DNA of 22,176 bases from a virus (Duplodnaviria > Heunggongvirae > Uroviricota > Caudoviricetes): the IMG/VR virus record IMGVR_UViG_2585427971_000007, positions 1-22,176 of that record; one strand, given 5' to 3'. Of the stretch, positions 701 through 21,834 are shown one piece after another (position 1 is the first letter of the stretch; each line of letters begins with the position of its first letter). The notes under the pieces are model-generated. The model was not told the DNA's origin. It did not search any database and saw only the letters and a list, made by a program, of their open reading frames with translations. The position numbers and the translations under genes were made by a program.

Positions 701-776
<76 letters not shown>

Positions 777-829: not shown

Positions 830-903
830 GGCGCGTTAACAAAGCGGTTATGTAGCGGATTGCAAATCCGTCTAGTCCGGTTCGACTCCGGAACGCGCCT
901 CCA
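830..903 (+). tRNA. cysT: tRNA-Cys (anticodon GCA)
   Basis: 74-nt sequence ggcgcgttaacaaagcggttatgtagcggattgcaaatccg...ggttcgactccggaacgcgcctcca with GCA anticodon and CCA end. Confidence 0.92.
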
Positions 904-915
904 CTTTTTTCCCGA

Positions 916-1002
916 GCCCGGATGGTGGAATCGGTAGACACAAGGGATTTAAAATCCCTCGGCGTTCGCGCTGTGCGGGTTCAAGTCCCGCTCCGGGTAC
1001 CA
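916..1002 (+). tRNA. leuZ: tRNA-Leu (anticodon TAA), long variable arm
   Basis: 87-nt sequence gcccggatggtggaatcggtagacacaagggatttaaaatccctc...gggttcaagtcccgctccgggtacca; class II tRNA with TAA anticodon. Confidence 0.92.
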
Positions 1003-1043
1003 TGGGAAAGATAAGAATAAAATCAAAGCAATAAGCAGTGTCG

Positions 1044-1070
1044 TGAAACCACCTTCGGGTGGTTTTTTTG
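1044..1070 (+). terminator. rho-independent terminator of the tRNA operon (possibly bidirectional, also downstream of int)
   Basis: GC stem aaaccacc/ggtggttt with ttcg loop followed by a run of 7 T; A-rich on the 5' side. Confidence 0.8.
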
Positions 1071-1132
1071 TATCTTCTTTCTCATTTCCGAAGATGCGTC
1101 CGAAGATGATTTTTCTCTGGACGCATCATCAT

Positions 1133-2149
1133 TCATTTTCTCTGGCCACCAACTACGGGCACTACTTTAACTTTCCGGTCATATGCTGCTGTCTGTCGCG
1201 GGTTCTTATGCCCGGAAATTGCTTGCTTCTCTTCCAGGCTGCCTTCCAGATCAGAGATACCTTTTGCTTTCAGATCATGAAATGTGAAGTCTATTTGCAG
1301 ATGAGGATATTTTTCCTGTGCTGCCGCTTTGACATCACGCCAACGAGAGTTAAAACCATCACGGGTATACTTGCCACCGGTAGTTTGATGAATCACAAAC
1401 AGGCTACTGATTCCCGTTTTTAATGGCAGAGAACGAGCCAGAGCTATCGCTTTCTGCAGACGAGGCGACCAGGCTTTGATTTGCTTAACGCCGGTTTTTC
1501 CCTGACGAATGTAGATCCCGGAATCGAACAGCTGGTCTTTCTGCAATGAAAGTACATCACTCTGTCTGGCCACGCATAAGTAGGCAATCTCCATTGCTAC
1601 GCGAACAACATCAGGAGACACTTCATAAACGGCCTGATATTCTTCATCCGTAATATAACGTTCGCGAGCTTTCTCTTTAAACTGTTTAACTCCCTGACAA
1701 GGATTCCTCTGAACATAACCTCGTTCATAACCCCAACGGAATACCCGGGACATAAAGCTTTTTTCCCTGTTTGCCTGAGTTCGGCTTGATAAACCGCGTT
1801 GATCCATATAGCGCCGAATATGTTCAGGTTTGATTTTATCCGGGTCGATCTTCCCGAAGACAGGCAGAACTTTTCCGGAATATTTTGTGTAGTCTTTCCG
1901 GGTTTCGACTGCCAAATCCATAAAATCAGGGGAGGTCATGAATTGTTCCGTGAGCGCCTGAAAAGTATTTCTTTCTTTTTCGTCACCGACCGCTTTTTCA
2001 TATGCCAGCCATACGGCTGATCGTGGTGCATCCAATGCGCACAGGCGTATCGCTTTGTTATCTTTATTCCTGAATTCGTAGGCCGCTTTGCCCTGGTAAA
2101 CACGAGGCGGCATCCAGTTATCTGCTGGGTTCTTTCTCTTTCCGGCCAT
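1133..2149 (-). CDS. Tyrosine recombinase, lambda-family phage integrase
   Basis: ORF with N-terminal basic arm-binding-type region (MAGKRKNPADNWMPPRVY) and C-terminal catalytic motifs (GKTGVKQ, HDLKAKG, GHKNPRQTAAYDR with the Tyr); start set at the ATG at 2149 by analogy with lambda Int; the longer ORF runs to 2179. Confidence 0.9.
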   Translation of the reverse strand: MAGKRKNPADNWMPPRVYQGKAAYEFRNKDNKAIRLCALDAPRSAVWLAYEKAVGDEKERNTFQALTEQFMTSPDFMDLAVETRKDYTKYSGKVLPVFGKIDPDKIKPEHIRRYMDQRGLSSRTQANREKSFMSRVFRWGYERGYVQRNPCQGVKQFKEKARERYITDEEYQAVYEVSPDVVRVAMEIAYLCVARQSDVLSLQKDQLFDSGIYIRQGKTGVKQIKAWSPRLQKAIALARSLPLKTGISSLFVIHQTTGGKYTRDGFNSRWRDVKAAAQEKYPHLQIDFTFHDLKAKGISDLEGSLEEKQAISGHKNPRQTAAYDRKVKVVPVVGGQRK

Positions 2150-2381
2150 TAAATATTGCTCCAAAATCAGGTTCATCATCTTTTCGCGTCGTCACCTCCT
2201 GTAAATTGCGAAATTTTATTGGGTTCATGAAATGGCCCCAGGTTGTTTTTGGGTGTCCGTCAGCCCTTTCCATGAAGAAAATTCCAGCCCGGCGAAGAGC
2301 CTCACATTGCTTTGATTTAAGTGGGCTTCCCGTCAGCTCGACCATTTCTTCTCTGGTGATTATGTCGTGATCGCTTTTCAT
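2118..2381 (-). CDS. Excisionase-like small DNA-binding protein
   Basis: 87-aa ORF immediately upstream of and overlapping the integrase start; RBS GAGGAAAGACC directly before the ATG. Confidence 0.6.
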   Translation of the reverse strand: MKSDHDIITREEMVELTGSPLKSKQCEALRRAGIFFMERADGHPKTTWGHFMNPIKFRNLQEVTTRKDDEPDFGAIFNGRKEKEPSR

Positions 2382-2541
2382 GGTCTTTCCTCATTATGTA
2401 GCTTATTGCGTCATCTGCCTTCTGGCAGGCACGGGCAATATCAGACTCGGTCAAAGTCTGTTTCCTGACGCTGGCCGACAGTCGACCAATTTTGATATCA
2501 AATGCGGAGAGCAGAGTTGCTCCCGGTTGCCATCGCAGCAT
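2317..2541 (-). CDS. Hypothetical small protein (74 aa from the ATG at 2541), C-terminus overlaps the xis start in another frame
   Basis: ATG at 2541 preceded by a GGAGG Shine-Dalgarno; basic low-complexity C-terminal tail makes the call uncertain. Confidence 0.4.
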   Translation of the reverse strand: MLRWQPGATLLSAFDIKIGRLSASVRKQTLTESDIARACQKADDAISYIMRKDHEKRSRHNHQRRNGRADGKPT

Positions 2542-2590
2542 TGTGATCCTCCGGTGTCTGGTGAATCGCAATGCTAGCGATGGTGAGTTT

Positions 2591-2773
2591 TTATTTCTGA
2601 TTAGGCGTAATCAGTTCTTGTGGGGTGAATGCCGATTTCTCCCGAGTGACCTTAATGTTTTCTGGCAGGTGTAGCCCAAGTTCGCAGCGGCTCCGTGCTT
2701 CAATAATGCCATTGGTACCATCGGCAAGTACCAGGTGAACCGCGTCACCACGCTTTAATGTGAGTTTAAGCAT
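2591..2773 (-). CDS. Hypothetical small protein (60 aa)
   Basis: Start codon overlaps the stop of the upstream 189-aa gene (ATGA overlap), suggesting translational coupling. Confidence 0.5.
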   Translation of the reverse strand: MLKLTLKRGDAVHLVLADGTNGIIEARSRCELGLHLPENIKVTREKSAFTPQELITPNQK

Positions 2774-3342
2774 TAGCGTATCCTCAGTGACCGTTCGCCG
2801 CGTTCCAGATGTGCGCCTGGTACCGGGTTTAATAACTCGGCTGGTGGTGTTTCTCCACGCGCCAGTATTTCGGCGGCAACCGCCTCCGCAGATTCAATCA
2901 CTTCTTTAATGGCTCGCTTGTTTGGTGTAATAACCGTTTCTACATCAACAAGTGACACGCCCTCATACTCATCCGGGATCTTATCTTTGCTATCGATAAT
3001 TACCCGGATAGCCCCCTGTGCATCAGTAAATGTGTTTTTTGCGGTTTTCAGTTTATCCAGGCCAGCAGCTTGCAGGCAGGTGAGCATATGCTTTCGAATT
3101 GCTTTTTCCTTGCCTTCAAAGGACGTCTTACGGGTTGCCAGGCGAGACATTTCTTCAGCGCAGGTATTGGCATTGCCCTGTAAATTACGGCAGATGACCA
3201 TCATGGCGTCCAGTTTGTCTCCCAGTTCTCCTTCCATGCCTTCAAGCGTGTCGGCGATCATCTCTGGCGTCAGTTCATCGGCGGTTTCTAACAGGTCAAT
3301 CAGACTGGCATATTCTTTTGCAATAGCGATAGCAGTGCTCAT
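2773..3342 (-). CDS. Phage early protein, Gam / Gp157-like (putative host-nuclease inhibitor); family assignment tentative
   Basis: 189-aa acidic protein with coiled-coil-like N-terminus; AGGAG RBS; start overlaps the stop of the upstream annealase gene; resemblance to Mu Gam / siphovirus Gp157 judged from memory only. Confidence 0.55.
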   Translation of the reverse strand: MSTAIAIAKEYASLIDLLETADELTPEMIADTLEGMEGELGDKLDAMMVICRNLQGNANTCAEEMSRLATRKTSFEGKEKAIRKHMLTCLQAAGLDKLKTAKNTFTDAQGAIRVIIDSKDKIPDEYEGVSLVDVETVITPNKRAIKEVIESAEAVAAEILARGETPPAELLNPVPGAHLERGERSLRIR

Positions 3343-5555
3343 GCTGTTTGCTCCTGTGCAGCGGTAAGGGCGGCGAGGCGTTCAGTTTTAATGTCGGTGA
3401 TACGGCGCAGACGTGATCCCAGATACGATGAATATTCTTTATCGCCTTTGGTTTCCGCTGCTTTCCTGTGTACATCCACTTCGCGGGCGATGAGGCCAAA
3501 TACCTTGTTTACTTCGTTGGCGGTTACCGCGGCGGCCAGCGTATTGGCAACGTTGATAAGCTTCTCATCCAGTTCCTTACGCAGACGGGTAGCATCTTCC
3601 GCATTCTCGCTGGCATTCTTGATATCAAACTCAGCTTTATTCCTCTGGCGGTATTCCGGATTGTCGTACAGGCCCATGAAAATATCGGCGCTGAATCCGA
3701 GAGGGGATAGCGCTTTCTTAACAGCATCCGTCCAGGATTTCTTCGGTGCTTCGCCGTCGCTTGTTGGTCCGTATTTAGTGTCGTAGATATAAGGTGTGCA
3801 TCCGTAAGCCTCGGACTCACCGCGTACCCCATTCAATATGTACCAGACTCTCACTTTCATGGTGTGGTGCATTTCACATAGGTACCCGCCAACACCGTCT
3901 TGAATCAGATCCCATTCTATTTTTTCACCAACCTGTTTTTTGCGAACTATTGGTGCGCCTTTATCAAAGCGCTCCTCCAGCACCTCTACCCCCCAGCCAA
4001 TACCAAATGGCCCAAATTCGCGAGTCGCTTTCATCGCTATATAAGTGCCGTTGATGGATGTGCCGCCGCCATTCTGAGAGAAAGCACTGGTGAAGCGCTC
4101 ATCGGTTTTGAATACGTTCTTCCACAATGCCAGGTTATCCGTGTCATCTGAGTCCTTTAACTCCGTTTCGATAGCTGAGATTGCATTCTGCCGCTTGTGC
4201 TCTTCGGCATGGATCCGCTCAACCAGCGCGTCAACGTTCTGCACCAGATCCTTTACCTGCTCGCTAAGTTGTTCTTGTGGAGGAGTCTCTTCTGCCAGGG
4301 TAATAGCTGCAGGTTCCCTCTGTGATACGGCGTTATTTTCAGGTACGTCATACACATGGCGAGGCGTGACAAACTGCTCACGCAACTGCTGCAAACTACG
4401 TTCTCCAGCATTTGCAGCTTCGCTTTTTTCGCCCTGATTTGAGGGTGTTTCTGACATCATCCCATCAATTGAGAATCGTCCGCCGCCGTGGTTGGTGACT
4501 TTTACATCATCCTTGGGTGCTGCTTCCTTTGGCTTCTCTTCAACAGCATTTGCATCACGCTGCCCGTTAGCTTGCAGCCAGTTGTCGATGTGACTGCGCA
4601 GGGATTGTGGGAAGTGGTACGTGTCTTTTGCGGGGGCGCTCTGAATAACACCGAATACTGATGCGCGGTCATAGGCAAGGATCTGATCCGTTGTGCGCAA
4701 GGCCATTGACCAGCGTTTAAAATCTTCCCTGTCCTGACTGATTATTTCGTCTGCCGCTTTCAGGATGCTGGGGGTGATTTTTTCCGGGGCAACAGGTAAC
4801 AGGGCGCAGGCAATTTCACGATCCAGAGTGGCGTGAGTCTGTTTGTAAGGACGTGCGGATGCTGTTTCTGGTTTTACCTCCGGCAGCATTTCATCTCGTT
4901 TACCGGGATTCTCTACCCATTTTTTTATAAATTTGGAGATAGTCCAACTGGTCGGGTTTTGTTCCTGGGTATCGCAACTTGCCAAAATTGCATGTACCAG
5001 ATTATTCAATCCAGCAATATGCATGTACTCGATGGGCTTACACGCCACCATGGCATCAAGAACGATGCGGTTAAACGCGTCAACCTCATCCTCACTGTCA
5101 GTATCACTGTTATCGAGCATCTCCAGGTATTCACGCGTCTGCACAAGCAATTCACTGTCGACTTCGTTGGCGTCGTGGCTGAACAGCAGAACGGCGGCGA
5201 ATCGTTCACGAGCCGGCAGTTTCATCAGGTCGCTAACCTGTGAGATATCTGCTGAACTGCAATCTGAATCAACAGGAGTGTTAACTACCCATTTTTCGCC
5301 ATCAAAACTGTGTTCTGTGGCAAACGTCTCATCAAACTCACCGACGCCTGGGCGCGGTTGGCCCGGGGCATCTTCCCAGATTTTAGGTTTGAAATAGTTG
5401 TCGCCGTGGTCAGGGTAGGCTTCCCACAATTTGCCGATGATGATGTTCTCGGCAACTTTTTTGTTAGGGGCGGCGATGGCGATGGCCAGCGCCGGGATCG
5501 CGCCGTTTTTGAGCGCGCCTTTTTTCGCTTCTAACAAGCCGTTAAAAATGGTCAT
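3339..5555 (-). CDS. Large early protein: N-terminal ~470 aa of unknown function fused to a C-terminal Rad52/Sak-like single-strand annealing domain
   Basis: 738-aa ORF with RBS GAGGAAAGACC; residues ~490-635 carry Rad52-family hallmarks (GGG...FGPFGIGWG ... GESEAYG ... TDAVKKALSPLGFSADIFMGLYD). Confidence 0.75.
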   Translation of the reverse strand: MTIFNGLLEAKKGALKNGAIPALAIAIAAPNKKVAENIIIGKLWEAYPDHGDNYFKPKIWEDAPGQPRPGVGEFDETFATEHSFDGEKWVVNTPVDSDCSSADISQVSDLMKLPARERFAAVLLFSHDANEVDSELLVQTREYLEMLDNSDTDSEDEVDAFNRIVLDAMVACKPIEYMHIAGLNNLVHAILASCDTQEQNPTSWTISKFIKKWVENPGKRDEMLPEVKPETASARPYKQTHATLDREIACALLPVAPEKITPSILKAADEIISQDREDFKRWSMALRTTDQILAYDRASVFGVIQSAPAKDTYHFPQSLRSHIDNWLQANGQRDANAVEEKPKEAAPKDDVKVTNHGGGRFSIDGMMSETPSNQGEKSEAANAGERSLQQLREQFVTPRHVYDVPENNAVSQREPAAITLAEETPPQEQLSEQVKDLVQNVDALVERIHAEEHKRQNAISAIETELKDSDDTDNLALWKNVFKTDERFTSAFSQNGGGTSINGTYIAMKATREFGPFGIGWGVEVLEERFDKGAPIVRKKQVGEKIEWDLIQDGVGGYLCEMHHTMKVRVWYILNGVRGESEAYGCTPYIYDTKYGPTSDGEAPKKSWTDAVKKALSPLGFSADIFMGLYDNPEYRQRNKAEFDIKNASENAEDATRLRKELDEKLINVANTLAAAVTANEVNKVFGLIAREVDVHRKAAETKGDKEYSSYLGSRLRRITDIKTERLAALTAAQEQTA

Positions 5556-5585
5556 TGGTCTTTCCTCATTACAGGTCAGTGGTTT

Positions 5586-5906
5586 TTAGTAGGGGAGCTC
5601 ATCGGTATCTGGCGTGTATTCGATGCAAAGTAACTGCTGGATTTTGTCATCGATAGCAGCAATACGCTGTTGGGCGTCGGCGACTGTTTTCTGTTTTTGT
5701 TCACGCAGTTGCTCGACCTGTAAACCGATGATGTCGATTGGCTCGGGCTGGTTAACGGTAATTTCAATTTCGCGGCTTTCCAGAAGGATGTACCTGTCTG
5801 GAAAATTTTTTGACATATCAACAGTCGCAACAAGCAGCTTTTCGTGGCTGAAAGTTGAAGTTGCATAATGAATAAAGAGTGTTACTGGGATGGTGCGCGC
5901 TTCCAT
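5586..5906 (-). CDS. Hypothetical phage early protein (106 aa)
   Basis: ATG preceded by an AAGGAG RBS; first gene of the leftward early operon. Confidence 0.6.
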   Translation of the reverse strand: MEARTIPVTLFIHYATSTFSHEKLLVATVDMSKNFPDRYILLESREIEITVNQPEPIDIIGLQVEQLREQKQKTVADAQQRIAAIDDKIQQLLCIEYTPDTDELPY

Positions 5907-6759
5907 AGCGACTCCTTGGTAATGTATACTCAGAGCCGATCAGCGAATATTGATCAGCTTCCATAGCGTCAGTGTCGTTGGTCTTTCCTCATCACAAGTT
6001 TGGTCACTTGTGATAAATCCGAATGGTTTGGTCGCCGTTCGGGGTAACTGGCCCGCCTTGTGCGGGTCTTTTGCTATCTAAAGGGTGCCGGTTACGTTTC
6101 CGGCGTCGTTATGTTTCCATTACGACCGTACAGGGCTGGTCAGGCCCGGGCTGGTCTTTCCTGTTTTGAGCTGGTCAGGCTCATGGTCAACGCTGGTCAG
6201 GCGTGGTACTTCCTCCGGTCTTTCCCTGGTGTCACGCTGCGGGTTTGGCCTCTCCTGTTGGGGACTCAGGCACAGCGATAAAACCTGGCTGTGTGAAAAA
6301 ATGGCCCATCGTGCGGACTGGGCAAAGACTAAACACAGCAAATTGATGATGGGCGCCCGGAATCGAACCGGGTAACGGGCAGGGAGTTCCCGTTAAACAC
6401 CTGTTCACCACAACCGGGAGCGCACTCCGCCATTTCAAAATTTAACGACAAAGCTCAAAGTTGAGTCGATGAAGTGCGCTCTCGTGTTGTAGCCAGGACT
6501 CTTCCCTGGTGGTCACACCGTATCGCCTTGATGGTGAATCAATCGCTCATACCTGGCTGTGGCTTGCACATTCCGGCTACCTGCTATGGAGACAACGCGT
6601 TAAGGCTCCGCTTCCATCCAGACCGCTTCGACACATGTGCCATATGCCGGTGAAGTCTTTCCCTCTGTCACCGTGTTGGCGCCGACGCGCAAAATTTGGT
6701 GCCGTCTTTCCGGCTGTCAGAACGTGTTTCTGAACAACTGCCGCTGGGTAAGCGTTGTT

Positions 6760-6870
6760 GATGAAAGTGACTTTACAATTTGTATTTGTAATGGTCAATG
6801 TGTTTTTAAAAAATAATTTGTAGTGAGGGGCAAAAAAATATTCACTGTGTAAAGGTGTTTTTGTGTTAGG
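6760..6870. promoter_or_regulatory. AT-rich putative OL/pL-type operator-promoter region downstream of the repressor gene
   Basis: Repeated TTTGTA(A/T) motifs (caatttgtatttgtaatgg, aataatttgtagtgagg) resembling those between the repressor and cro genes. Confidence 0.4.
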
Positions 6871-6995
6871 GGAAAGTTGCATGCCAGCAGCGGCTGGCCT
6901 GGAAATTTGAACTGAACTATTTTGTCTGGTTTTTGGCTTCAAGTAGTTCTTTTAGCAGTAGATCGAAGTGCTCTCTTTTTCTTTTAGCTCATTGA

Positions 6996-7328
6996 TTAAT
7001 TTATTTTTTCGCTCTCAGGCAGTCCTCTGAATAGTTGCAGTAGAGCCTGTTCTTGCGGGGTTAGTTCTTGATTGTAATTACCCGGGTGTAGTGTGGATTC
7101 ATCCAAATATTCCCCTTCATTCATGAAGAAAAAATGAACAGGGTATCCGGTCACTTTTGCTAGCTTGTCTAATTTATCTTTTCTTGGAGTTACCCCATTA
7201 CACCATGCCTGAACTGATTGAGCCGTAACCCCAATATGGCGAGCTAACTCAGATTGAGACCAGCCTAAGTCTTTTAGAATCCGTTGTAGTCGGCTAGCAA
7301 AAGCCATGTTTTTCGTTTTTGTGTTCAT
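6996..7328 (-). CDS. Phage repressor, short XRE-family helix-turn-helix protein with no peptidase domain
   Basis: HTH signature WSQSELARHIGVTAQSVQAWCNG; divergent from a Cro-like gene; start uncertain (alternatives at 7343 TTG, 7328 ATG, 7307 ATG). Confidence 0.8.
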   Translation of the reverse strand: MNTKTKNMAFASRLQRILKDLGWSQSELARHIGVTAQSVQAWCNGVTPRKDKLDKLAKVTGYPVHFFFMNEGEYLDESTLHPGNYNQELTPQEQALLQLFRGLPESEKIN

Positions 7329-7343
7329 ACCGTAAGGATACAA

Positions 7344-7426
7344 GGTTTAATTGTAGGGAGCATTGCAAATATAATTTGTAATTACAGTTATTGTTTGTAA
7401 TGATGACGCGGACACAAGGAGTCCAT
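7344..7426. promoter_or_regulatory. Divergent promoter/operator region of the immunity switch
   Basis: Intergenic region between divergent repressor and cro genes with repeated TTTGTAAT motifs (aatttgtaattacag, ttgtttgtaatgatg) and TTGCAA -35-like hexamer. Confidence 0.55.
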
Positions 7427-7657
7427 ATGGATAAACAACTGCAAGACAAAATTCTTTCCGTAATGAGTCAATCCGAGTTAGGGCGGCGATTAGGGAAAAA
7501 ACCACAAACGGTAAGCCTCTGGTTCAAAGGACGGGTTCCCGGTGAAGAGGTTTTGCGCACATCTGAAGCTCTTGAATGGCGCGTGACCCCTCATGATCTT
7601 AGACCGGATCTTTACCCAAACCCAGATGACAGCTTGCCTAAAACGGAAGCAGCTTAA
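7427..7657 (+). CDS. Cro/Apl-like HTH regulator (76 aa from the ATG at 7427)
   Basis: AAGGAG RBS 5 nt upstream of the ATG; HTH motif SQSELGRRLGKKPQTVSLWFKG; divergent from the repressor. Confidence 0.8.
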   Translation: MDKQLQDKILSVMSQSELGRRLGKKPQTVSLWFKGRVPGEEVLRTSEALEWRVTPHDLRPDLYPNPDDSLPKTEAA

Positions 7658-7715
7658 CTGTTGGTGAGCCCCAAATCTGATTAAGCGTAATCAATTTTTA
7701 GCGACAGGAGACGCT

Positions 7716-8192
7716 ATGGAAAACCAAGAGGAATTACAAAAAGAGATTTTGACCTGGGCGGCAAGGGCAGGGCAGGAACTCGTCACGATTGAAATCTGCC
7801 GGGCCTGGTTCAGTCAGGGACGCAATGATGAGTTGAGACTACATGAATTTGAGGACGCGGACGGCAACGTGGACTGGAGAGCCATCAACAACAATCGGCA
7901 GAAAATCTTTCGCTGGTTACGTGGCGAGACAACGGCGGCGCGCCGAAAAACTCAGGTGCTGGCCAGTGTGATGAAAGCCGTGCTACCCGCAGAACGGCGG
8001 GCACGTCTGGAGTCGCCGGGCGATCCCGTTTTGCTGGCAACGCTGGCGGCAAAAGAAGGGGTGGAAGCGATTAACGCTGTACATCTCCACTTCGCGCCAG
8101 AGTTAACTATTCAGGAAATTGACGAAGCAATAGCGGCGCTGGTAGCGACGCGAGGAGCAGTGATACGCACTGCGCAAGACCACCATGCATGA
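7716..8192 (+). CDS. Phage regulatory protein, CII-like / YdaT-like (tentative)
   Basis: 158-aa ORF with AGGAG RBS directly downstream of cro; functional call rests on position in the switch operon only. Confidence 0.45.
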   Translation: MENQEELQKEILTWAARAGQELVTIEICRAWFSQGRNDELRLHEFEDADGNVDWRAINNNRQKIFRWLRGETTAARRKTQVLASVMKAVLPAERRARLESPGDPVLLATLAAKEGVEAINAVHLHFAPELTIQEIDEAIAALVATRGAVIRTAQDHHA

Positions 8193-8231
8193 GCGCCTGA
8201 CCAGCGTTTAACTTATACCGAGGAAAGACCG

Positions 8232-8456
8232 ATGTTAAGACATATTGACCGCATTACCTGGCGTAACGGCTGGCACCTGAATGGACGCCCGGCACATGTT
8301 GCAGAGATCCGCCCCATATTCGATGGCCGCGTCGCAGCTGCACGTTCTGTATGGGAAAAGTACGAAGAAGAAAAAGCGAAACTGCGTGAGCAAAATCTCT
8401 CTGGCGCTGCCTATGAGGCTGGCTGTCGCGTTCTCTCAGAGGCTTTGGGCATATGA
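8232..8456 (+). CDS. Hypothetical protein (74 aa)
   Basis: ATG preceded by GAGGAAAGACC RBS; last gene of the rightward early operon before the convergent junction. Confidence 0.5.
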   Translation: MLRHIDRITWRNGWHLNGRPAHVAEIRPIFDGRVAAARSVWEKYEEEKAKLREQNLSGAAYEAGCRVLSEALGI

Positions 8457-8597
8457 ACATCCTCCCGTTACTTGATAGACCCATAGCCTTCCAGAGAAGT
8501 TTTATCCGTCTTGAAATGGTGATGCGCCGCGCGATAAATGCACTCTATCTTGTGCGATAAATGGCATCCACGCGGCGTTTCATTATTTGAAAAAGAA

Positions 8598-9170
8598 TTA
8601 CATTTCAGGTTGCGTTATGACAGTCCCAACAGGGTGATAGCGGTAGATCGTTGACAGTCCAATATCATAGATAATTGCCAGCCGCTTTCTGTCATACCCT
8701 TTCTGGAGCAATCTTGCGATCTGCTCATGCTGCTCCTTCGTCAGTTTCGGGCGACGTCCTCCAACTCTTCCTTGTGCTCGCGCAGCAGCCAGTCCTGCCA
8801 GCGTGCGCTCAACTATCAGTTCACGCTCCATTTCTGCCAGTGCACCCATCATATGAAAAAAGAACCTTCCCATCGGAGTGCTGGTATCGATTGAATCCGT
8901 CAGACTGCGAAAATTGACACCTTTTGCGCGTAGCTCTTCTGTGAGAGCAATGAGGTGTTTCATTCTTCTACCCAACCGATCCAGCTTCCAGACCACCAAT
9001 GTATCCCCTCTTTTAAGGCACTTTAAAGCGCGTTTCAGGCCTGGTCGTTCCGACTTGGTTCCGCTCATTTTGTCCTCAAAAATCTGTTCACATCCTGCGC
9101 ACATTAATGCATTGCGTTGCAAATCTGTGTTTTGGTCATTTGTTGACACACGTATGTAGCCAATCAGCAT
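8598..9170 (-). CDS. Serine DNA invertase, Pin/Gin/Hin/Cin family (190 aa)
   Basis: N-terminus MLIGYIRVSTNDQNTDLQRNAL with catalytic Ser and a C-terminal HTH; AAGGGAG RBS; lies adjacent to the invertible fibre segment; start set at the internal ATG at 9170 rather than the longer ORF to 9299. Confidence 0.92.
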   Translation of the reverse strand: MLIGYIRVSTNDQNTDLQRNALMCAGCEQIFEDKMSGTKSERPGLKRALKCLKRGDTLVVWKLDRLGRRMKHLIALTEELRAKGVNFRSLTDSIDTSTPMGRFFFHMMGALAEMERELIVERTLAGLAAARAQGRVGGRRPKLTKEQHEQIARLLQKGYDRKRLAIIYDIGLSTIYRYHPVGTVITQPEM

Positions 9171-9226
9171 TAAAAATACTCCCTTTTGAGTGGTTAAAGT
9201 ACTGAGATAATGTGGGGAGGATTTGA

Positions 9227-9252
9227 GAGATAAACGTTGGTTTGGGGGAAGG
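9227..9252. promoter_or_regulatory. Putative invertase crossover site, left (gix/hix-like)
   Basis: Junction where inverted-repeat identity begins; reverse complement reads tcccccAAACCAAcgtttatctctc, resembling Din-family sites (AAACC..GGTTT). Confidence 0.5.
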
Positions 9253-9436
9253 CTCTGCACTGCCTGTTGGTGTGCCTGTTCCATGGCCCACCGCCACACC
9301 GCCAGCAGGCTGGTTAAAGTGCGACGGGCGCGCCTTTACAAAAGAACAATATCCTGTTCTGGCCAGAGTCTACCCGACCCTCCGTCTTCCCGATTTACGC
9401 GGTGAGTTTATCCGTGGATGGGACGACGGGCGCAAG
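9237..9436. repeat. Inverted repeat, left copy (~200 bp, 3 mismatches in the first 50 bp, otherwise identical) encoding the shared part of the fibre C-terminus
   Basis: Direct comparison with the reverse complement of 10656-10852. Confidence 0.9.
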
Positions 9437-9715
9437 ATTGACGAGGGGCGTAAGTTGCTTTCATGGCAGAAAGGTACACTGGTCGGCGGTCATGACGATA
9501 ACGATTCTTCGCTTGATATCTCGTACATGAGTAACGGAAATAATATTGACTATGGCGGCGATAAGGTGTTTGCGGGGAATTACCGTAGCGATTATTTGTG
9601 GTACGTAATTCTGGGAGGAACAAACAGTCGCGCAAAAGCCGAATTAAACGGAGCATTCTTTAACATAACCCGCCCCCGCAATATCGCGTTTAACTATATC
9701 GTGAGGGCGGCGTGA
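9242..9715 (+). CDS. Alternative tail-fibre C-terminal cassette (promoterless, silent in this orientation)
   Basis: First ~62 aa identical to the corresponding part of the expressed fibre (GEGSALPVGVPVPWPTATPPAGWLKCDGRAF...), then divergent; ends with the conserved NYIVRA motif; opposite strand to the fibre. Confidence 0.8.
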   Translation: MGEGSALPVGVPVPWPTATPPAGWLKCDGRAFTKEQYPVLARVYPTLRLPDLRGEFIRGWDDGRKIDEGRKLLSWQKGTLVGGHDDNDSSLDISYMSNGNNIDYGGDKVFAGNYRSDYLWYVILGGTNSRAKAELNGAFFNITRPRNIAFNYIVRAA

Positions 9716-9721
9716 TACCGT

Positions 9722-10336
9722 TCAACTGGCAAGTGCCAGTGGCGCTTCCGGCCAGCTGATTTCAGGTGCCGTGCTGATATCCAGTGCGTTCAGCTCGTCG
9801 ATATAATCCAGCACGGCGTTCAGTTTTGCCGTTTCTTCTGGTGTCAGACTGCGACCAGCACGCAGTTTGAGGTTGATAAGATCGACTGACGCCATCGCCT
9901 GTTTCACCCGTTGCTGGCGTTGCTGTCTGGCAACCTCCAGTTCTGCGGCTCGCTGCCGTTCAGTATCGGTTACCCACGCCTCACCGTTCCAGGTATCCCA
10001 TGGCGTGGCTGGCTGTTTTGTGGTGGTGTCCGCCGGGTAATCACCCGGTTGGGTAATCAGAACAGGGTTACCGTTCTCCGTGCTGTATACCGTCTCGCCG
10101 CGGTGATCAGGCACATGCTCCCACCCGTTCAGCGTGGCAGTCCGGCAAACCACGTAACCCGAAATTGCCTCCGGCGGTGCATCGGCGCACGAATGTGCCG
10201 GAGTACCCACCCCAAGGGCGAGATACTCCACAGAGGATGAGGTGTATTCCCGGGTTTCCTCGTCATAGTGATATACAGTGATATCGCCCGCTACAGTGGC
10301 GATACCGTTTTCATCCAGAACTGCAGTGTTACTCAT
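9722..10336 (-). CDS. Tail fibre assembly protein (P2 gpG / Mu U-like)
   Basis: 204-aa ORF whose start overlaps the fibre stop (TAATG); position and composition typical of assembly chaperones. Confidence 0.8.
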   Translation of the reverse strand: MSNTAVLDENGIATVAGDITVYHYDEETREYTSSSVEYLALGVGTPAHSCADAPPEAISGYVVCRTATLNGWEHVPDHRGETVYSTENGNPVLITQPGDYPADTTTKQPATPWDTWNGEAWVTDTERQRAAELEVARQQRQQRVKQAMASVDLINLKLRAGRSLTPEETAKLNAVLDYIDELNALDISTAPEISWPEAPLALAS

Positions 10337-12345
10337 TAAACTGCCCTCACAATGTAATTAAGTGCAATGCTACGGGGTCTGACAGTGATACCCTTCGCAT
10401 ACCCGCTTCTGATAGAGGTCAGAATAGTAGCCTGCATACCATTGTCTGACATTGCCACGACAGGATCGCTGAATGTTGTCCCGTCCGGCATTTTAAAGCT
10501 GCCCTCACGAAGGTCTGTAATGGAATCTTCATTGTTGAATCCCATGCCGACTATCCCCGAGGTTCCCGTAGTGTCCTGGTTATAATAATCCAGCATTGCT
10601 GTTCTTAACAGCGTTGCCCCTTGTGCGGACAGCAACTTACGTCCTGTATCAACTTTGCGCCCGTCGTCCCATCCACGGATAAACTCACCGCGTAAATCGG
10701 GAAGACGGAGGGTCGGGTAGACTCTGGCCAGAACAGGATATTGTTCTTTTGTAAAGGCGCGCCCGTCGCACTTTAACCAGCCTGCTGGCGGTGTGGCGGT
10801 GGGCCATGGAACCGGTACACCAACAGGCAATGCAGAGCCTTCCCCCAAACCAAGGTAATTGAGGACATCTTTTATACTGCCCTTAGCGATAATAGCGCGA
10901 CCAATAGCTGTAAGGGTTGCCAGCGCTGCGCGGTCTGCTCCGGTAAAATAAGGCAACCGATCTGCTGCAGTGGCAAGTCCTGCCAGAGCAGTGAGCGTGG
11001 CATCTGCCGGTTGTTTTCCGTTTGCCAGATCGTATGCAGCCTTGACCGCTTTCGGTGTGGCGGCCAGTATTTCAGACGTGCTGTTGATAGCACTGCTCAG
11101 TTGTACGGTGCCTTTTGCCGTCAGCGAGGCAGCAGGCACTCCCGTTATCTGACTCCACGGGTGAGTGTGGCTGACGGGCGCCTTGCCGGCTGCAAGGTCG
11201 TATGCAGCCTTGACCGCCTTCGGCGTGGCAGCCTCAATTTCTGATTGACTGTCCGTGGCGCTGCTCAGTTGTACGGTGCCTTTTGCCGTCAGTGAAGCCG
11301 CAGGCACTCCCGTTATCTGACTCCACGGGTGAGTGTGGCTGGCAGGCGCCTTGCCGGCTGCCAGGTCGTATGCAGCCTTGACCGCTTTCGGTGTGGCGGC
11401 CAGTATTTCAGACGTGCTGTTGATGGCACTGCTCAGTTGTACGGTGCCTTTTGCCGTCAGCGAGGCAGCTGGCACTCCCGTTATCTGACTCCACGGGTGA
11501 GTGTGGCTGACGGGCGCCTTGCCGGCTGCAAGGTCGTATGCAGCCTTGACCGCCTTCGGCGTGGCAGCCTCAATTTCTGATTGACTGTCCGTGGCGCTGC
11601 TCAGTTGTACGGTGCCTTTTGCCGTCAGTGAAGCCGCAGGCACTCCCGTTATCTGACTCCACGGGTGAGTGTGGCTGGCAGGCGCCTTGCCGGCTGCCAG
11701 GTCGTATGCAGCCTTGACCGCTTTCGGTGTGGCGGCCAGTATTTCAGACGTGCTGTTGATGGCACTGCTCAGTTGTACGGTGCCTTTTGCCGTCAGCGAG
11801 GCAGCTGGCACTCCCGTTATCTGACTCCACGGGTGAGTGTGGCTGACGGGCGCCTTGCCGGCTGCAAGGTCGTATGCAGCCTTGACCGCCTTCGGCGTGG
11901 CAGCCTCAGTTTCTGATTGACTGTCCGTGGCGCTGCTCAGTTGTACGGTGCCTTTTGCCGTCAGTGAAGCCGCAGGCACTCCCGTTATCTGACTCCACGG
12001 GTGAGTGTGGCTGGCAGGCGCCTTGCCGGCTGCCAGGTCGTATGCAGCCTTGACCGCTTTTGGTGTGGCGGCCAGCGTTTCAGAGGTGCTGTTGGTGGCA
12101 CTGCTCAGTTGGGTGAACCCCTTAGCTGTCAGTGTCGCGTCCGGGTGGTTACGGGAACGTACGTGTTCAGCCAGTGACTGTGCGGCTTCCTCCGTTTTCT
12201 TCTTCAGCCATTTCGTCCTGTTTGCCAGTTGCCGGGGGGCTCGATTTGATATCCCGTCTGCACCACCCAGAACCGGATCTGATGTCTCCAGTTGATAGAT
12301 ATTTTCTTCCCACTTTTCTGTTTCATTCAGGTTTCCCATAATCAA
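10336..12345 (-). CDS. Tail fibre protein (P2 gpH-like), C-terminus lying in the invertible segment
   Basis: 669-aa ORF; N-terminus and the motif HPDATLTAKGFTQLSSATNSTSETLAATPKAVKA recalled from P2 gpH-type fibres; internal tandem repeats. Confidence 0.9.
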   Translation of the reverse strand: MIMGNLNETEKWEENIYQLETSDPVLGGADGISNRAPRQLANRTKWLKKKTEEAAQSLAEHVRSRNHPDATLTAKGFTQLSSATNSTSETLAATPKAVKAAYDLAAGKAPASHTHPWSQITGVPAASLTAKGTVQLSSATDSQSETEAATPKAVKAAYDLAAGKAPVSHTHPWSQITGVPAASLTAKGTVQLSSAINSTSEILAATPKAVKAAYDLAAGKAPASHTHPWSQITGVPAASLTAKGTVQLSSATDSQSEIEAATPKAVKAAYDLAAGKAPVSHTHPWSQITGVPAASLTAKGTVQLSSAINSTSEILAATPKAVKAAYDLAAGKAPASHTHPWSQITGVPAASLTAKGTVQLSSATDSQSEIEAATPKAVKAAYDLAAGKAPVSHTHPWSQITGVPAASLTAKGTVQLSSAINSTSEILAATPKAVKAAYDLANGKQPADATLTALAGLATAADRLPYFTGADRAALATLTAIGRAIIAKGSIKDVLNYLGLGEGSALPVGVPVPWPTATPPAGWLKCDGRAFTKEQYPVLARVYPTLRLPDLRGEFIRGWDDGRKVDTGRKLLSAQGATLLRTAMLDYYNQDTTGTSGIVGMGFNNEDSITDLREGSFKMPDGTTFSDPVVAMSDNGMQATILTSIRSGYAKGITVRPRSIALNYIVRAV
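10656..10852. repeat. Inverted repeat, right copy (partner of 9237-9436)
   Basis: Reverse complement matches 9237-9436. Confidence 0.9.
10841..10866. promoter_or_regulatory. Putative invertase crossover site, right (gix/hix-like)
   Basis: tcccccAAACCAAGGTaattgagga at the boundary between the constant fibre region and the inverted repeat. Confidence 0.5.
11010..12140. repeat. Tandem array inside the fibre gene: ~6.7 copies of a 168-bp (56-aa) unit in two alternating variants (336-bp super-period)
   Basis: Protein repeats ASLTAKGTVQLSSA..ATPKAVKAAYDLAAGKAP(A/V)SHTHPWSQITGVP; plus-strand shadow ORFs recur every 336 bp with identical sequence. Confidence 0.9.
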
Positions 12346-12920
12346 CTGCTCCCGTGGTTATAACTGCCATCATGGATGGCGGTATTGTTATAGCGAATGG
12401 CCACAGACTGATACTCCAGGCTGGCCAGATGGCAGCGGGCCGGTGCAAATGCAGCCAGCGTCTGACGCAGCATCGCGGCCTGATCGTTAGTAATGGGCTG
12501 TTTCAGAATAACGCGATAAACTGCCCAGGCGGCTGCATCTCCATGAACAAACAGTCCGTTATAGCTGCGATTGCCGTCGTAACTGAGACGACCTGTGCCT
12601 TCAATCAGATCCACTTCACCAAAGCCAAAACGGCGGATAACTTCCCGGATTGACCACGGCGTCCCTTTATACCGGTGCAGTTCGATGGCTGCTTTTATAA
12701 GCATGCGGCGAACATCGTCCGATTCCGCCAGCTCCCAGCCATCGCCAGACAGTGAGAACTGCTCGCCCAGCCATGGCAGCGCAGAACTGTCGACGATATC
12801 GACGAGAAAGACCATCAGTACGCTCAGGTCGATGTTATCCAGCCGTCCTGCCAGTCTTCCCAGCGTCCTGAGACTGATATCACCCTCAAGCGGTGGCGGG
12901 AGTTGTAATGGCTCAGTCAT
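12342..12920 (-). CDS. Baseplate/tail protein, P2 gpI-like
   Basis: 192-aa ORF overlapping the fibre start; motif LPWLGEQFSL...KGTPWSIREVIRRFG; synteny V-W-J-I-H-G. Confidence 0.8.
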   Translation of the reverse strand: MTEPLQLPPPLEGDISLRTLGRLAGRLDNIDLSVLMVFLVDIVDSSALPWLGEQFSLSGDGWELAESDDVRRMLIKAAIELHRYKGTPWSIREVIRRFGFGEVDLIEGTGRLSYDGNRSYNGLFVHGDAAAWAVYRVILKQPITNDQAAMLRQTLAAFAPARCHLASLEYQSVAIRYNNTAIHDGSYNHGSS

Positions 12921-14016
12921 CAGACACTCCAGTCATGTTAAGAGTGATTGCCGTACAGTTTGCCCATTCGTTTTCTGCCACCACCCTCAGTGCCGGTGTC
13001 ACCAGTTCAACCTGGTACACCCCGGAAACGGACAATGCACTGATAATCTGGCTGGGGACAATATCACGCCCCAGCGTGGCGGCACGTGATGCCACCCAGT
13101 TCTGTATGGCGCTGTTAGCGGCATCTTTTACAGACCTGGCATCCTGATCACGATAGATCGTAATCCTGGCTTCAATGGTGTAATCCACCTTCACTGGTGT
13201 TTTAGCCCGCACTGTATCAGTGAGTGGCCTGACTTTCTCATCAGAGCAGAAACTCTCTACCAGCGTGAGAACACCGCCGTCCGGCAGACCGGTACTGAGC
13301 AGCGGATACAGATCTACGGTCCCGGGAACCGGGGAAAGCACAGCAACATCGACAATGTTGGGATGGGCCTGCATGGCATGAAAGCGGTATGCGCCACGGC
13401 TTCCGGCATTGGTGAATGACTCCGGGGCCAGCCTGATACGCTCCCGGAGCCTGTCATCGTCTTCCTGTTCTGAACCGCCGGAACTGGCCGTCAGATTGCT
13501 CACCAGCAGGTCGACGTTATCAATCTCATCGAGTAACTGACTGACCTGCGCAGGTTGCCAGCCGTTACCAGCGGTACCGGGTTCGGTACAGGTGGACGTG
13601 ACATTGACCAGCAGCAATCCGGCCTTCAGTACCACATCTGTATCGGTGGCAAAAATAACGCTGTCGGAAGCGCTGACGCGGGTGCCTGCCGGGATCAGCA
13701 CATCAATGGCCAGTGCCTCATCTACGGAGAACTGGAGCGTGGTGGTGGCAGGCTGCGCGGCAAGACGGTATACACCAACCAGTTCACCGAGGTAATCAAT
13801 CATCGGCTCACGGGCAAAGGCGACCAGATTCTGCTTTGCTGCCTCCTGTACCGCAACCCTGACCAGCATTTCGCGATAGGCCCACAGATCAATCAGCAGA
13901 CGTTCTGCCTGTGCCGGGTACAGCGTTTTGCCGGTATCCGCTTCATACTTCGCAATCATTTCTGCCGTGATTTTGTCGGCATCGCGTTCAATAAAATCGG
14001 GTTCTGTCAGCGCCAT
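12913..14016 (-). CDS. Baseplate protein, P2 gpJ-like
   Basis: 367-aa ORF between the gpW-like and gpI-like genes with overlapping start/stop. Confidence 0.8.
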   Translation of the reverse strand: MALTEPDFIERDADKITAEMIAKYEADTGKTLYPAQAERLLIDLWAYREMLVRVAVQEAAKQNLVAFAREPMIDYLGELVGVYRLAAQPATTTLQFSVDEALAIDVLIPAGTRVSASDSVIFATDTDVVLKAGLLLVNVTSTCTEPGTAGNGWQPAQVSQLLDEIDNVDLLVSNLTASSGGSEQEDDDRLRERIRLAPESFTNAGSRGAYRFHAMQAHPNIVDVAVLSPVPGTVDLYPLLSTGLPDGGVLTLVESFCSDEKVRPLTDTVRAKTPVKVDYTIEARITIYRDQDARSVKDAANSAIQNWVASRAATLGRDIVPSQIISALSVSGVYQVELVTPALRVVAENEWANCTAITLNMTGVSDD

Positions 14017-14354
14017 AGCAGCTCCTGAGTCCGGGTCTGTCCGTCTGAGCCTTTCCAGCTCACCCGGAGCGTAAGATGTTCGCCGTCGACGGCGGGTTTA
14101 ACTGACATAAGCTGGCAGCGGGGCTCCCAGCGCCGGATGGCATCGACGGATTCGCGCACCACATGCGGAATGGCCCGGTCTACAGGCCAGTCGATATAAA
14201 GATGCAGATTGCTGCCGAACTCCGGGCGATGCGGGTCGCTGCCGCGGGGAGTCCGCAGGATAATTTGAATCGCCTGCCGGATATCATCCAGCCCCCGGAC
14301 AATTTCGCCGGGAGCCTGCAGGGCTGGTTGCCAGAATACTGAGGTCGTTTTCAT
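14007..14354 (-). CDS. Baseplate wedge protein, P2 gpW / T4 gp25-like
   Basis: 115-aa ORF with motif RGSDPHRPEFGSNL...AIRRWEPR. Confidence 0.8.
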   Translation of the reverse strand: MKTTSVFWQPALQAPGEIVRGLDDIRQAIQIILRTPRGSDPHRPEFGSNLHLYIDWPVDRAIPHVVRESVDAIRRWEPRCQLMSVKPAVDGEHLTLRVSWKGSDGQTRTQELLWR

Positions 14355-14408
14355 GGGGGCAGTATTGCCCCCGTGCGGGAACGCTGATATTAAAGGCGTT
14401 TAAGAAGC

Positions 14409-15005
14409 TCAGTGGGAGTGGTGGCTGGAGTTTTCGCCATCAGACAGCATACTGCCCGTGGCATGGGCATTCCCTTTAATCTCGATATTGCCATGGATGG
14501 TCGCGGTAACACCTTTACCACCAGAACCCGCCATGCCTCCTTCGTAAATCAGCTTTCCCCTGACACGCAGATCTCCGGTAAGTTCGGTTTCCGGTGCGTC
14601 AATCGTGGCTTTCTGTGTTTTCAATACCACATCAGCACCACACTCAATGACAATATGCTCAATGCCGCCCCGGATGGTCAGAGTGTGCGTCTTCCGGTTG
14701 TAGCTGTACTCTGCACCATCAGCAAACCGGGTTCCCCGGATATTTTTGTCACTGAACGGTGGTTTATCGACGTCTGAATACACCGCGCCCAGAATAACAC
14801 CATCCTCGCCGTTGGCATCGAGCAGCACCTCAACCTGCTCCCCCACGTCAGGGAGCCAGTAATCTTTGTTATCCTGGGTATTACGCTGCAGCACGTTAAG
14901 CCAGTTTGTGCGCAGGTTATCGCATTCAGGCAGACGAACGCGGGCCTGAACCCTGTCGGCATCAACGGCACTGACCGTACCGACCTGACGAGTGACACCA
15001 GTCAT
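14409..15005 (-). CDS. Baseplate spike protein, P2 gpV-like
   Basis: 198-aa ORF with His-rich C-terminal tip (SSHHSH); position upstream of the gpW-like gene. Confidence 0.8.
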   Translation of the reverse strand: MTGVTRQVGTVSAVDADRVQARVRLPECDNLRTNWLNVLQRNTQDNKDYWLPDVGEQVEVLLDANGEDGVILGAVYSDVDKPPFSDKNIRGTRFADGAEYSYNRKTHTLTIRGGIEHIVIECGADVVLKTQKATIDAPETELTGDLRVRGKLIYEGGMAGSGGKGVTATIHGNIEIKGNAHATGSMLSDGENSSHHSH

Positions 15006-16156
15006 TTTTTCTTCTCCTTAATCACCGTCGATGTACTGCCATCCGGGTGATAAACCGTGAGTTTCTGAGTTTTTTGTTTTTTCCCTCTTGTGACTGGCCC
15101 CCGTGCCACTTCCAGCTCTGTGGTGTAGCCGCTGTTACGGTCAAACGCATGGCGGGCAGTGGTTATGAGCCATGGCCCGGATAACTGCCCAAAACCCACC
15201 AGTTCAATTTTGTTGCCTGCTGTCAGTTGAGGTGTTCCCGTCAGCGTCAGGGAGCCGTTCTGCTGGTATTCGTTATGTCTGGCCAGTGCTGAATCCGCTT
15301 TAATCCGGGCACTGTCCGGGTCGCTGACGCGGCTGTTAACTTTAAGTGAGTCAGCGCTGGTAACCTTACCACCTTTGAGCTTTTTGTCGCTTTCACGGGT
15401 ACCACCATCAGCTTCGTAGACGATCAGTTTTTTACTGCTGCTTTTCTGGTGTTTTACCTTTGCAGATTTATAGACCCGGTTGATGGTGTCACGCAGGGAA
15501 AAGCGGGCCACATCCTGCGGTTTTAACTGCCTGACCGTCTCCTGACTGCGCAGTGTGGCCAGATGAGAAAAAATCAGCTGGTCACTGACCACTTTCACTG
15601 CATAACCATACTCGCTGGCCAGCCGGCGCAGAAAACCCACGTCGGTTTCAGCATACTGGGTCACCCGGTCGATTCTGATGGACTCAATGCTGCCCACCAG
15701 TTTCAGCCGGTGCTTTCTGGCAATCCGCCCCGCAACAGCTGCCAGCGTGGTGTTCTCAAAACCACGGCTGGATTTAGTCCGCAGAGCACTGTTAACCGAG
15801 GTGGCCACCCCACGGATAGAAACAACGGAAGCGGGCGAACTCACTTCGATCTCGTCTATAGAGAACGTACCGCAGGACAGCAGCTTCTCGCCCTGATAGC
15901 CCATTTTCAGCGTCAGCGTGTCACCCTTGCCCGGATACCACTTATCCAGCCAGCGGCCATCGGTGTCGTCCAGCTCCACCTCAATGGTATCGGACTCATT
16001 TTTGATGTTATCGCTCCAGGTCACACGGGTGACATAAGGCGCGATATCAGAGGTGATGTTTTTCTGCAGATACCACAGAGTGAACACCGGTGTCAGCACA
16101 TCGCTGACGCCGGTTAACGCTGATGTGACTTGCGCAGTGCTGTTTATCTCAGCCAT
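15002..16156 (-). CDS. Tail protein, P2 gpD-like (late control D family)
   Basis: 384-aa ORF, size and position consistent with gpD. Confidence 0.75.
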   Translation of the reverse strand: MAEINSTAQVTSALTGVSDVLTPVFTLWYLQKNITSDIAPYVTRVTWSDNIKNESDTIEVELDDTDGRWLDKWYPGKGDTLTLKMGYQGEKLLSCGTFSIDEIEVSSPASVVSIRGVATSVNSALRTKSSRGFENTTLAAVAGRIARKHRLKLVGSIESIRIDRVTQYAETDVGFLRRLASEYGYAVKVVSDQLIFSHLATLRSQETVRQLKPQDVARFSLRDTINRVYKSAKVKHQKSSSKKLIVYEADGGTRESDKKLKGGKVTSADSLKVNSRVSDPDSARIKADSALARHNEYQQNGSLTLTGTPQLTAGNKIELVGFGQLSGPWLITTARHAFDRNSGYTTELEVARGPVTRGKKQKTQKLTVYHPDGSTSTVIKEKKK

Positions 16157-16359
16157 GGGGCAATATCCTCTTCTGTACGGGCTTCTTCAGTCTCAATCAC
16201 CGGGATCAGTAACAACAGCCCGGAGGGCAGCACCGGCGTGATGGCCACGTGCGGATTGGCGGCAATAATCCGGGGATAGCCCAGCGGGTCACCGTAGTAC
16301 TGCCATGCCAGCGAATCCCAGCGCTCTCCGTCACGGGTAACATGTTCAAGAAACATCAC
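16144..16359 (-). CDS. Tail protein X-like (LysM-like, P2 gpX)
   Basis: 71-aa ORF with motif DSLAWQYYGDPLGYPRIIAANP. Confidence 0.75.
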   Translation of the reverse strand: MMFLEHVTRDGERWDSLAWQYYGDPLGYPRIIAANPHVAITPVLPSGLLLLIPVIETEEARTEEDIAPWLR

Positions 16360-21816: not shown

Positions 21817-21834
21817 TTCGTGATGCGGTTTATC

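Follow-up and report, generated by a model that had tools for sequence, protein, structure and literature searches.

Gene content on either side of the spacer

The window, meaning the whole stretch of DNA analysed here (22,176 nucleotides), holds a set of plus-strand early genes and a minus-strand block of tail genes, separated by a spacer of 141 bp (8457-8597) that runs from the end of a 74-amino acid gene to the stop codon of an invertase gene. To the left of the spacer, a chromosomal flank and three tRNA genes are followed by genes of a lambdoid prophage. These features are listed below, with the evidence for each in brackets.

1-549: pgsA, chromosomal flank (SK1144 annotation)
701-776: tRNA-Gly (ARAGORN, Rfam)
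830-903: tRNA-Cys (ARAGORN, Rfam)
916-1002, plus strand: tRNA-Leu, anticodon taa (leuZ), the lambdoid integration site (ARAGORN, Rfam, SK1144 annotation)
1133-2179, minus strand: tyrosine integrase of the lambdoid prophage; annotated homologue 1133-2149 (open reading frame list, PGAP annotation of SK1144)
6996-7307, minus strand: CI-like HTH repressor (Pfam HTH_3, Phage_CI_repr)
7427-7657, plus strand: Cro-like regulator (Pfam YdaS_toxin and HTH_3)
7716-8192, plus strand: CII-like activator, YdaT family (Pfam YdaT_toxin, 2e-15; phrog_163, CII-like, 7e-42)
8232-8456, plus strand: 74-amino acid early-right gene, function unknown (phrog_2465)
8453-8519, plus strand: remnant of an O-like replication-initiator gene, first 22 codons (SK1144 alignment, translation)

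An Rfam search of the window returned the three tRNAs and nothing else. Between the early-left genes and the cI-like gene, a stretch of approximately 1 kb (5906-6996) is without a convincing open reading frame, SK1144 annotation or Rfam match.

The features to the right of the spacer are as follows.

8598-9170, minus strand: serine invertase of the Hin/Gin/Cin/Pin type, last gene before the element end (Pfam Resolvase, 8e-51; HTH_7, 1e-12)
9234-10856: invertible tail-fibre segment, bounded by inverted repeats 9234-9462 / 10628-10856 (229 nt each, 95% complementary)
9242-9715, plus strand: silent alternative fibre C-terminus inside the invertible segment (Pfam Collar/Caudo_TAP cover the segment)
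9722-10336, minus strand: tail fibre assembly gene, inside the invertible segment, which also holds the expressed fibre C-terminus
10336-12345, minus strand: tail fibre gene, 669 amino acids (Pfam Phage_fiber_2, 6e-123)
12342-12920, minus strand: P2-type I (Pfam Tail_P2_I)
12913-14016, minus strand: P2-type J (Pfam Baseplate_J)
14007-14354, minus strand: P2-type W (Pfam GPW_gp25)
14409-15005, minus strand: P2-type V (Pfam Phage_base_V)
15002-16156, minus strand: P2-type D (Pfam Phage_GPD)
16144-16359, minus strand: P2-type X (Pfam Phage_tail_X)
16356-17240, minus strand: P2-type U (Pfam Phage_P2_GpU)
17240-20451, minus strand: tape measure gene, split into 987 + 83 amino acids (Pfam PhageMin_Tail)
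20609-20944, minus strand: tail assembly chaperone (Pfam Phage_TAC_7)
21042-21290, minus strand: small hypothetical gene (AVS0575 annotation)
about 21323-21847, minus strand: tail tube gene with two private 1-bp insertions (Pfam Phage_tube)
up to 22176, minus strand: tail sheath gene, 3' part (AVS0575 annotation)

An earlier note on this DNA had described Cro, a CII-like gene and a 74-amino acid gene on the plus strand running into an invertase and a tail operon on the minus strand, and this layout is borne out by the open reading frame list, Pfam and PHROGs. It had also pointed out that replication, lysis and late-regulator genes are missing from the junction, and the window annotation agrees, with none of these genes between the plus-strand early genes and the minus-strand tail block; judging from E. 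coli SK1144, they are expected 3' of the 74-amino acid gene.

The stop codon of the invertase lies at 8598, and the open reading frame list extends its start to 9299 (GTG); the annotated homologue, which PGAP names 'recombinase family protein', corresponds to 8598-9170. From approximately 9.2 kb to 22176, where the window ends inside the tail sheath gene, the tail module occupies the minus strand throughout, except for the silent alternative fibre end on the plus strand. The P2-type genes I to U (12342-17240) stand in the same order as BcepMu gp45-gp51, and the Pfam order of the whole module through Phage_tube equals that of BcepMu gp40-gp51, read toward the genome end. The fibre region has the invertase gene, the inverted repeats and the two orientations that characterise an invertase-controlled fibre switch of the Mu G/Gin or P1 C/Cin type, the segment being reversed in E. 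coli GN04275 and therefore present in both orientations in nature.

Several smaller observations concern the same genes. The 229-nt inverted repeats are unusually long, and the invertible segment of the window has one alternative fibre end and one assembly gene; GN04275 and TUM14759 carry at least two alternative ends. Tandem Repeats Finder (TRF) reported an in-frame repeat in the tail fibre gene (11023-12111; 336 bp, 3.2 copies) that is made of 168-bp half-units. The tape measure gene contains another in-frame tandem repeat (17840-18635; 261 bp, 3.0 copies), and the alignment to TUM14759 breaks across it, which suggests copy-number variation.

Eight indels are private to the window, seven of 1 bp and one of 3 bp (6976, 7004, 17549, 21277, 21635, 21816, 21855 and 22108), mostly in short homopolymer runs or repeats and with no substitutions nearby. 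Taken at face value, they leave the CI-like repressor short, the tape measure split and the tube and sheath genes broken. The repressor looks shortened through two 1-bp deletions in T-runs, at 6976 and 7004, relative to SK1144. The tape measure is a single 1070-amino acid gene in AVS0575, and its split in the window comes from the 1-bp deletion at 17549; as the alignment shows this deletion directly, repeat copy number was ruled out as the source of the length difference (987 vs 1070 amino acids). None of 637 genomes shared the private indels of 21200-22176. Judged from the sequence, these indels are more likely to be sequencing errors than decay, which suggests an error-prone assembly.

The breakpoint at 8519/8520 and element copies at other sites

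Positions 1-8519 of the window differ from E. coli SK1144 (NZ_AP018784.2) by two 1-bp gaps and nothing else. The leuZ prophage of this ST131-type strain has the same arm, with int, Gam-like, exonuclease, CI, Cro, CII-like and 74-amino acid genes, and at least 80% of window 1000-8700 is present in 427 complete E. coli genomes, in which the matches end at 8519. In SK1144, the 74-amino acid gene overlaps the start of a 251-amino acid gene (L002:27456-28211) that was assigned to O-like replication initiation through PHROGs (phrog_345, 2.4e-58); Pfam gave no match for the interrupted O-like gene. The SK1144 prophage thus proceeds from the 74-amino acid gene to a whole O-like initiator gene, DnaB (the replicative DNA helicase), antiterminator Q, holin/lysis, terminase and portal genes, whereas in the window the O-like gene is cut after codon 22. 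Of the lambdoid hallmarks, the integrase, CI-like, Cro-like and CII-like genes are present in the window and the rest (O-like/DnaB, Q, lysis and structural genes) are found in SK1144. Translation of the truncated O-like frame shows that it continues for 13 codons into the inserted DNA, with a stop at 8558-8560, to give a chimera of 35 amino acids.

Positions 8520-22176 match, with 99.8% identity, copies of a BcepMu-type prophage that reside at other chromosomal sites, and the visible 13.7 kb run colinear with complete copies except for small indels and for the direction in which the invertible segment lies. This prophage is present in approximately 635 of 5,426 complete E. coli genomes, at many sites, with no copy inside the leuZ lambdoid prophage in any of the 5,426. 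In a three-way alignment, the partner changes exactly at 8519/8520; the lambdoid sequence is untouched up to 8519, that is, through codon 22 of the O-like gene, and the two sides share no repeat at the join. The two sides were co-located in 0 of the 5,426 complete E. coli genomes, and a megablast search with 8400-8640 yielded no junction-spanning match in the same set. An exact 39-mer over the join was absent from the genome-contig and metagenome-contig collections, metagenomes yielded no match to the predicted far junction, and no record of the chimeric 35-amino acid open reading frame was found.

These results change the reading of the gene order. The earlier note had said that it is neither the lambda nor the P2/186 prophage order and had suggested a deletion or inversion; the juxtaposition is indeed non-native, but the proposed cause does not stand, as the breakpoint is, to the base, the TG terminus of a BcepMu-type transposable prophage. 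That account had been given without the sharp homology breakpoint at 8519/8520, which lies inside the spacer, and had taken both sides as one prophage, when they are two separate phage types, each intact elsewhere. It had further treated a tail operon directed toward the switch as an anomaly, and this too falls away, as the late operon of BcepMu-type phages is natively read toward the genome end. The synteny comparison that the note had proposed, in which intact relatives with the same gene order would show the arrangement to be native, had the opposite outcome: each half has intact relatives separately, in its own canonical order.

The terminus in the window (TGATGCGCCGCGCGATAAATG...) adjoins unrelated DNA in six other records, at irp2, fdrA, dmsC, potG, a locus beside tmaR, and a plasmid. 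When these flanks and that of the window (seven in all) were read side by side, the shared sequence was found to begin at TGATGCG. Several BLAST matches began 5-6 bases earlier, and an element end to the left of 8520 was therefore considered; it was rejected, as the flanking bases in question (aaatgg, aaatg, aaatga, gatgg) are chance similarity. Three complete copies were read from end to end, in AVS0575 (irp2), GN04275 (dmsC) and TUM14759 (between fdrA and ylbE). Each is approximately 37.5 kb long, starts with TG and ends with CA (...AATCA), and the three are enclosed by perfect 6-bp duplications (CTCAGG, CGATGG and AACTGG), which rules out a Mu-like target duplication of 5 bp. In the window, the TG of the element stands at 8520-8521, and one of its two ends is included. 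The features of this end are given below.

8514-8519: AAATGG, predicted 6-bp target site (from the 6-bp duplications round the three complete copies)
8520-22176, minus strand: BcepMu-type (Bcepmuvirus-like) transposable prophage, tail-side 13.7 kb from the terminal TG (99.8% identity; identical termini elsewhere)
8525-8531 / 8571-8577, minus strand: GC stem CGCCGCG / CGCGGCG, part of a longer imperfect hairpin, 3' of the invertase stop
8531-8540, plus strand: subterminal repeat 1, GCGATAAATG, candidate transposase site (positions 12-21 from the terminus)
8554-8563, plus strand: subterminal repeat 2, GCGATAAATG, candidate second transposase site (positions 35-44 from the terminus)

In the complete copies, the genes toward the near end, which is the end seen in the window, are holin, transglycosylase, Mu-like head (DUF935 portal, F-like, G-like), P2-like tail, fibre cassette and invertase. 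Toward the far end lie genes for small DNA-binding proteins, a DUF3102 protein, an integrase-core (DDE) transposase, an ExeA-type ATPase, Gam, gp16/GemA and Mor. The transposase encoded by the complete E. coli copies has 68% identity with BcepMu gp09 and 57% with that of Pseudomonas phage B3. In E. coli AVS0575 (NZ_CP124483.1), the prophage splits irp2, the yersiniabactin synthetase HMWP2 gene, and presumably abolishes yersiniabactin synthesis.

Plasmids of 89-98 kb with phage head, holin and tail genes, which we take to be P1-like, also hold the BcepMu-type terminus together with the invertase and the fibre cassette. In one of them (NZ_CP028585.2; 92.5 kb, L006), positions 2972-3657 match window 8514-9478, and the terminus joins immediately onto codon 12 (MLIGYIRISTND) of an invertase gene remnant, which still has a ribosome-binding region of its own. 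This fusion has the look of an old event in which the element transposed into the invertase gene of the plasmid itself and was then mostly lost.

Subterminal motifs and relation to known phages

The earlier note had placed a GC stem and a direct repeat in the spacer, and both are there: 8525-8531 is complementary to 8571-8577, the repeat stands at 8531-8540 and 8554-8563, and all of this lies inside the first 58 bases of the inserted element. Two exact copies of GCGATAAATG occur in the 22-kb window, and three with one mismatch, which is not above chance; it is position and conservation at equivalent ends, not count, that mark the repeat as non-random. The four ends compared read as follows.

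Window (invertase) end: positions 12-21 GCGATAAATG; from position 35 GCGATAAATG
E. coli element, other (Mor) end: positions 12-21 GAGATAAATG; from position 35 GAGATATTTA
BcepMu left end: positions 12-21 GAGATATTT; from position 35 GCGATATTT
BcepMu right end: positions 12-21 GCGATATTT; from position 35 GCGATAAAT

All four start with TGA, and in the three outside the window (the Mor end of the E. coli element and both ends of BcepMu) positions 12-20 and 35-43 are occupied by the related motif G[CA]GATAWWT. Over the 37,530 bp of a full E. coli copy, GNGATAWWTG is found only at these terminal places. Because a related motif recurs in the same register at these three other ends, the GCGATAAATG repeats are probably the places where the transposase binds the element end, comparable to R1/R2 in Mu.

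The exact 24-nt terminus (TGATGCGCCGCGCGATAAATGCAC) was also found in Erwinia tracheiphila and Serratia sp. L9, with diverging sequence downstream; these copies keep the second site, and the spacer between the sites is divergent. It is present as well on a 1.3-kb contig of a Moraxella osloensis assembly, where the 80 bases read do not differ from the E. coli version; this contig may be contamination.

On the minus strand, the RNA of 8515-8600 folds with -30.3 kcal/mol (z = -4.3), and 0 of 200 shuffled sequences were as stable. Searches of 8200-9400 gave no consensus terminator or promoter. An intrinsic terminator was considered for the GC stem and set aside, given that there is no U-tract and no consensus match and that the stem sequence is missing from the Serratia copy. 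The hairpin may stabilise or end the invertase transcript.

The element shares the overall plan of BcepMu (Bcepmuvirus, NC_005882), in which an early operon (regulators, Tn552-like rve transposase, ExeA-type ATPase, GemA and Mor) lies toward one end and the lysis, Mu-like head and P2-like tail genes (sheath, tube, E, T, U, X, D, V, W, J, I and H) lie toward the other. They differ at the tail-side end, where the E. coli element has a tail fibre assembly gene, an invertible fibre cassette and a serine invertase and BcepMu has an acyltransferase gene; BcepMu has been reported to be without an invertible G region (PMC2628397). They also differ in host, which here is E. coli, and in sequence, their nucleotide similarity being below the reach of megablast. 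Termini of the form TG...CA have been described as typical of those BcepMu-related elements that have an Rve transposase (PMC2628397), and in B3-like phages the early operon is inverted and the transposition proteins are unlike those of Mu (PMC5977238). A target-duplication length for BcepMu was not found in the KS10 paper. Escherichia phage PhiKM (PQ738613, deposited as Bcepmuvirus) is 96.7% identical in nucleotide sequence over the early region of the AVS0575 copy, with a 99.2% identical transposase; the PhiKM record is partial, and just 136 bp of window 5500-10500 matched it.

With phage Mu, the E. coli element has in common a transposable temperate lifestyle, TG...CA ends, subterminal transposase sites (candidate ones in the E. 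coli element), near-random insertion that disrupts genes, and an invertase-controlled invertible fibre segment near the right end (the G segment and Gin in Mu). The two differ in the transposase, which is MuA in Mu and of the Tn552/B3/BcepMu type in the E. coli element, and the latter has an inverted early operon, P2-type tail genes and a target duplication of 6 bp. The target duplication of Mu is 5 bp. In total, the element has the TG start, the subterminal motif, varied sites with 6-bp duplications and a P2-type tail in BcepMu order, and the near-identical complete copies contain the Tn552-like DDE transposase with its ATPase partner, the position of which is beyond the window end. On these sequence features, the inserted element belongs with the transposable phages of the BcepMu/B3 type.

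Origin and consequences of the junction

The arrangement very probably represents nested prophages, in which the O-like gene of the lambdoid prophage at leuZ has been entered by a BcepMu-type transposable prophage of approximately 37.5 kb. Transpositional insertion is favored because the breakpoint is the element terminus to the base and the lambdoid sequence is intact up to 8519, and because the same element has been mobile elsewhere, with 6-bp duplications. In the proposed sequence of events, a resident lambdoid prophage beside tRNA-Leu (leuZ) would have been entered by a phage of that size using a Tn552-like DDE transposase, the point of insertion being the O-like replication-initiator gene after codon 22, with 8520 as the TG terminus. 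The GCGATAAATG repeats would probably have served as the transposase docking sites for transpososome assembly. As the late operon of BcepMu-type phages (lysis, Mu-like head, P2-like tail) is transcribed toward one genome end, and in the E. coli lineage finishes with the invertible fibre cassette and the invertase, the 3' end of the tail module faces the Cro, CII and 74-amino acid genes because of the orientation of the insertion.

Beyond the window, approximately 24 kb more of the element would be expected, with head, lysis, repressor, transposase A/B, gam and mor genes. The predicted far end would consist of the CA terminus (...GTCTAATCA; ...CAAGTCTAATCA), AAATGG again, and GCGTGACTGCC, which is the O-like gene from codon 23. 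After this junction, the lambdoid phage should resume with the remainder of its O-like gene and continue through DnaB, Q, lysis, terminase and structural genes. The far junction is outside the window, and the target duplication and the completeness of either prophage in this genome lie beyond the visible sequence. The lambdoid prophage, interrupted in this way, would probably be without a replication initiator and grounded.

It is also conceivable that the insertion was followed by a further rearrangement, either recombination with a second copy of the element or a deletion inside it, so that the lambdoid remainder is not at the far end. Strains like SK1144 with an identical lambdoid arm do carry a BcepMu-type prophage at another locus, some genomes have up to three copies of the tube-sheath stretch, and the P1-like plasmids show an element end that survived as a remnant after most of the element was lost. 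The window shows no sign of such an event, however, in 13.7 kb that follow the complete copies save for the invertible segment and small indels, and we regard it as unlikely. A single prophage altered by internal deletion or inversion would account for the missing replication, lysis and late-regulator genes at the junction, yet it can be given next to no weight when the two sides are different, separately intact phage types, when the break falls at an exact TG terminus found beside unrelated DNA in six other records, and when the tail module is linked to this lambdoid arm in 0 of 5,426 genomes.

The remaining explanation is an assembly chimera joining the lambdoid prophage to a transposable prophage located elsewhere. 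The junction is unique among the genomes and contig collections searched, the private indels are typical of error-prone sequencing, and an actively transposing phage yields rare junction reads in culture. Against this, the two sides have no common repeat by which an assembler could be misled, the join coincides exactly with the terminus of the element, as it does in real insertions, and a consensus assembly normally would not track a rare junction. An error-prone assembly leaves a junction at the exact transposon terminus unexplained, and with no repeat shared at the join a chimera is considered very improbable. This leaves insertion of the BcepMu-type element into the O-like gene as the preferred reading.

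Insertion of a transposable phage into another prophage has long been known, classical Mu insertions into lambda prophages among them, and what is new here is this insertion site only. The nested-prophage finding leaves current understanding unchanged. It illustrates how a resident prophage can have its replication gene inactivated by a transposable phage, which is one ordinary route to grounded prophages.

There is a slight chance that the nested pair is more than a dead insertion, through coupling of the prophages, transfer of modules between phage families, or both. If the two were coupled, the transposable phage could still be active while the lambdoid prophage was permanently grounded through loss of the O-like gene. 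Derepressed early-right transcription of the lambdoid prophage would then cross the candidate transposase-binding end, antisense to the invertase, and the induction state of one prophage would be tied to fibre switching or end accessibility in the other. If modules were transferred, transposition followed by deletion would shift fibre and invertase cassettes among unrelated phage families; this idea is raised because the same element end is fused inside the remnant invertase gene of P1-like plasmids, which hints at such a course.

For annotation, the 22-kb stretch is to be treated as two prophages, split at 8519/8520, where callers would otherwise report one aberrant mosaic phage. The end comparison also provides a rule for delimiting BcepMu-type prophages in enterobacteria, namely TGA at positions 1-3, G[CA]GATAWWT at positions 12-20 and 35-43, and a 6-bp duplication.
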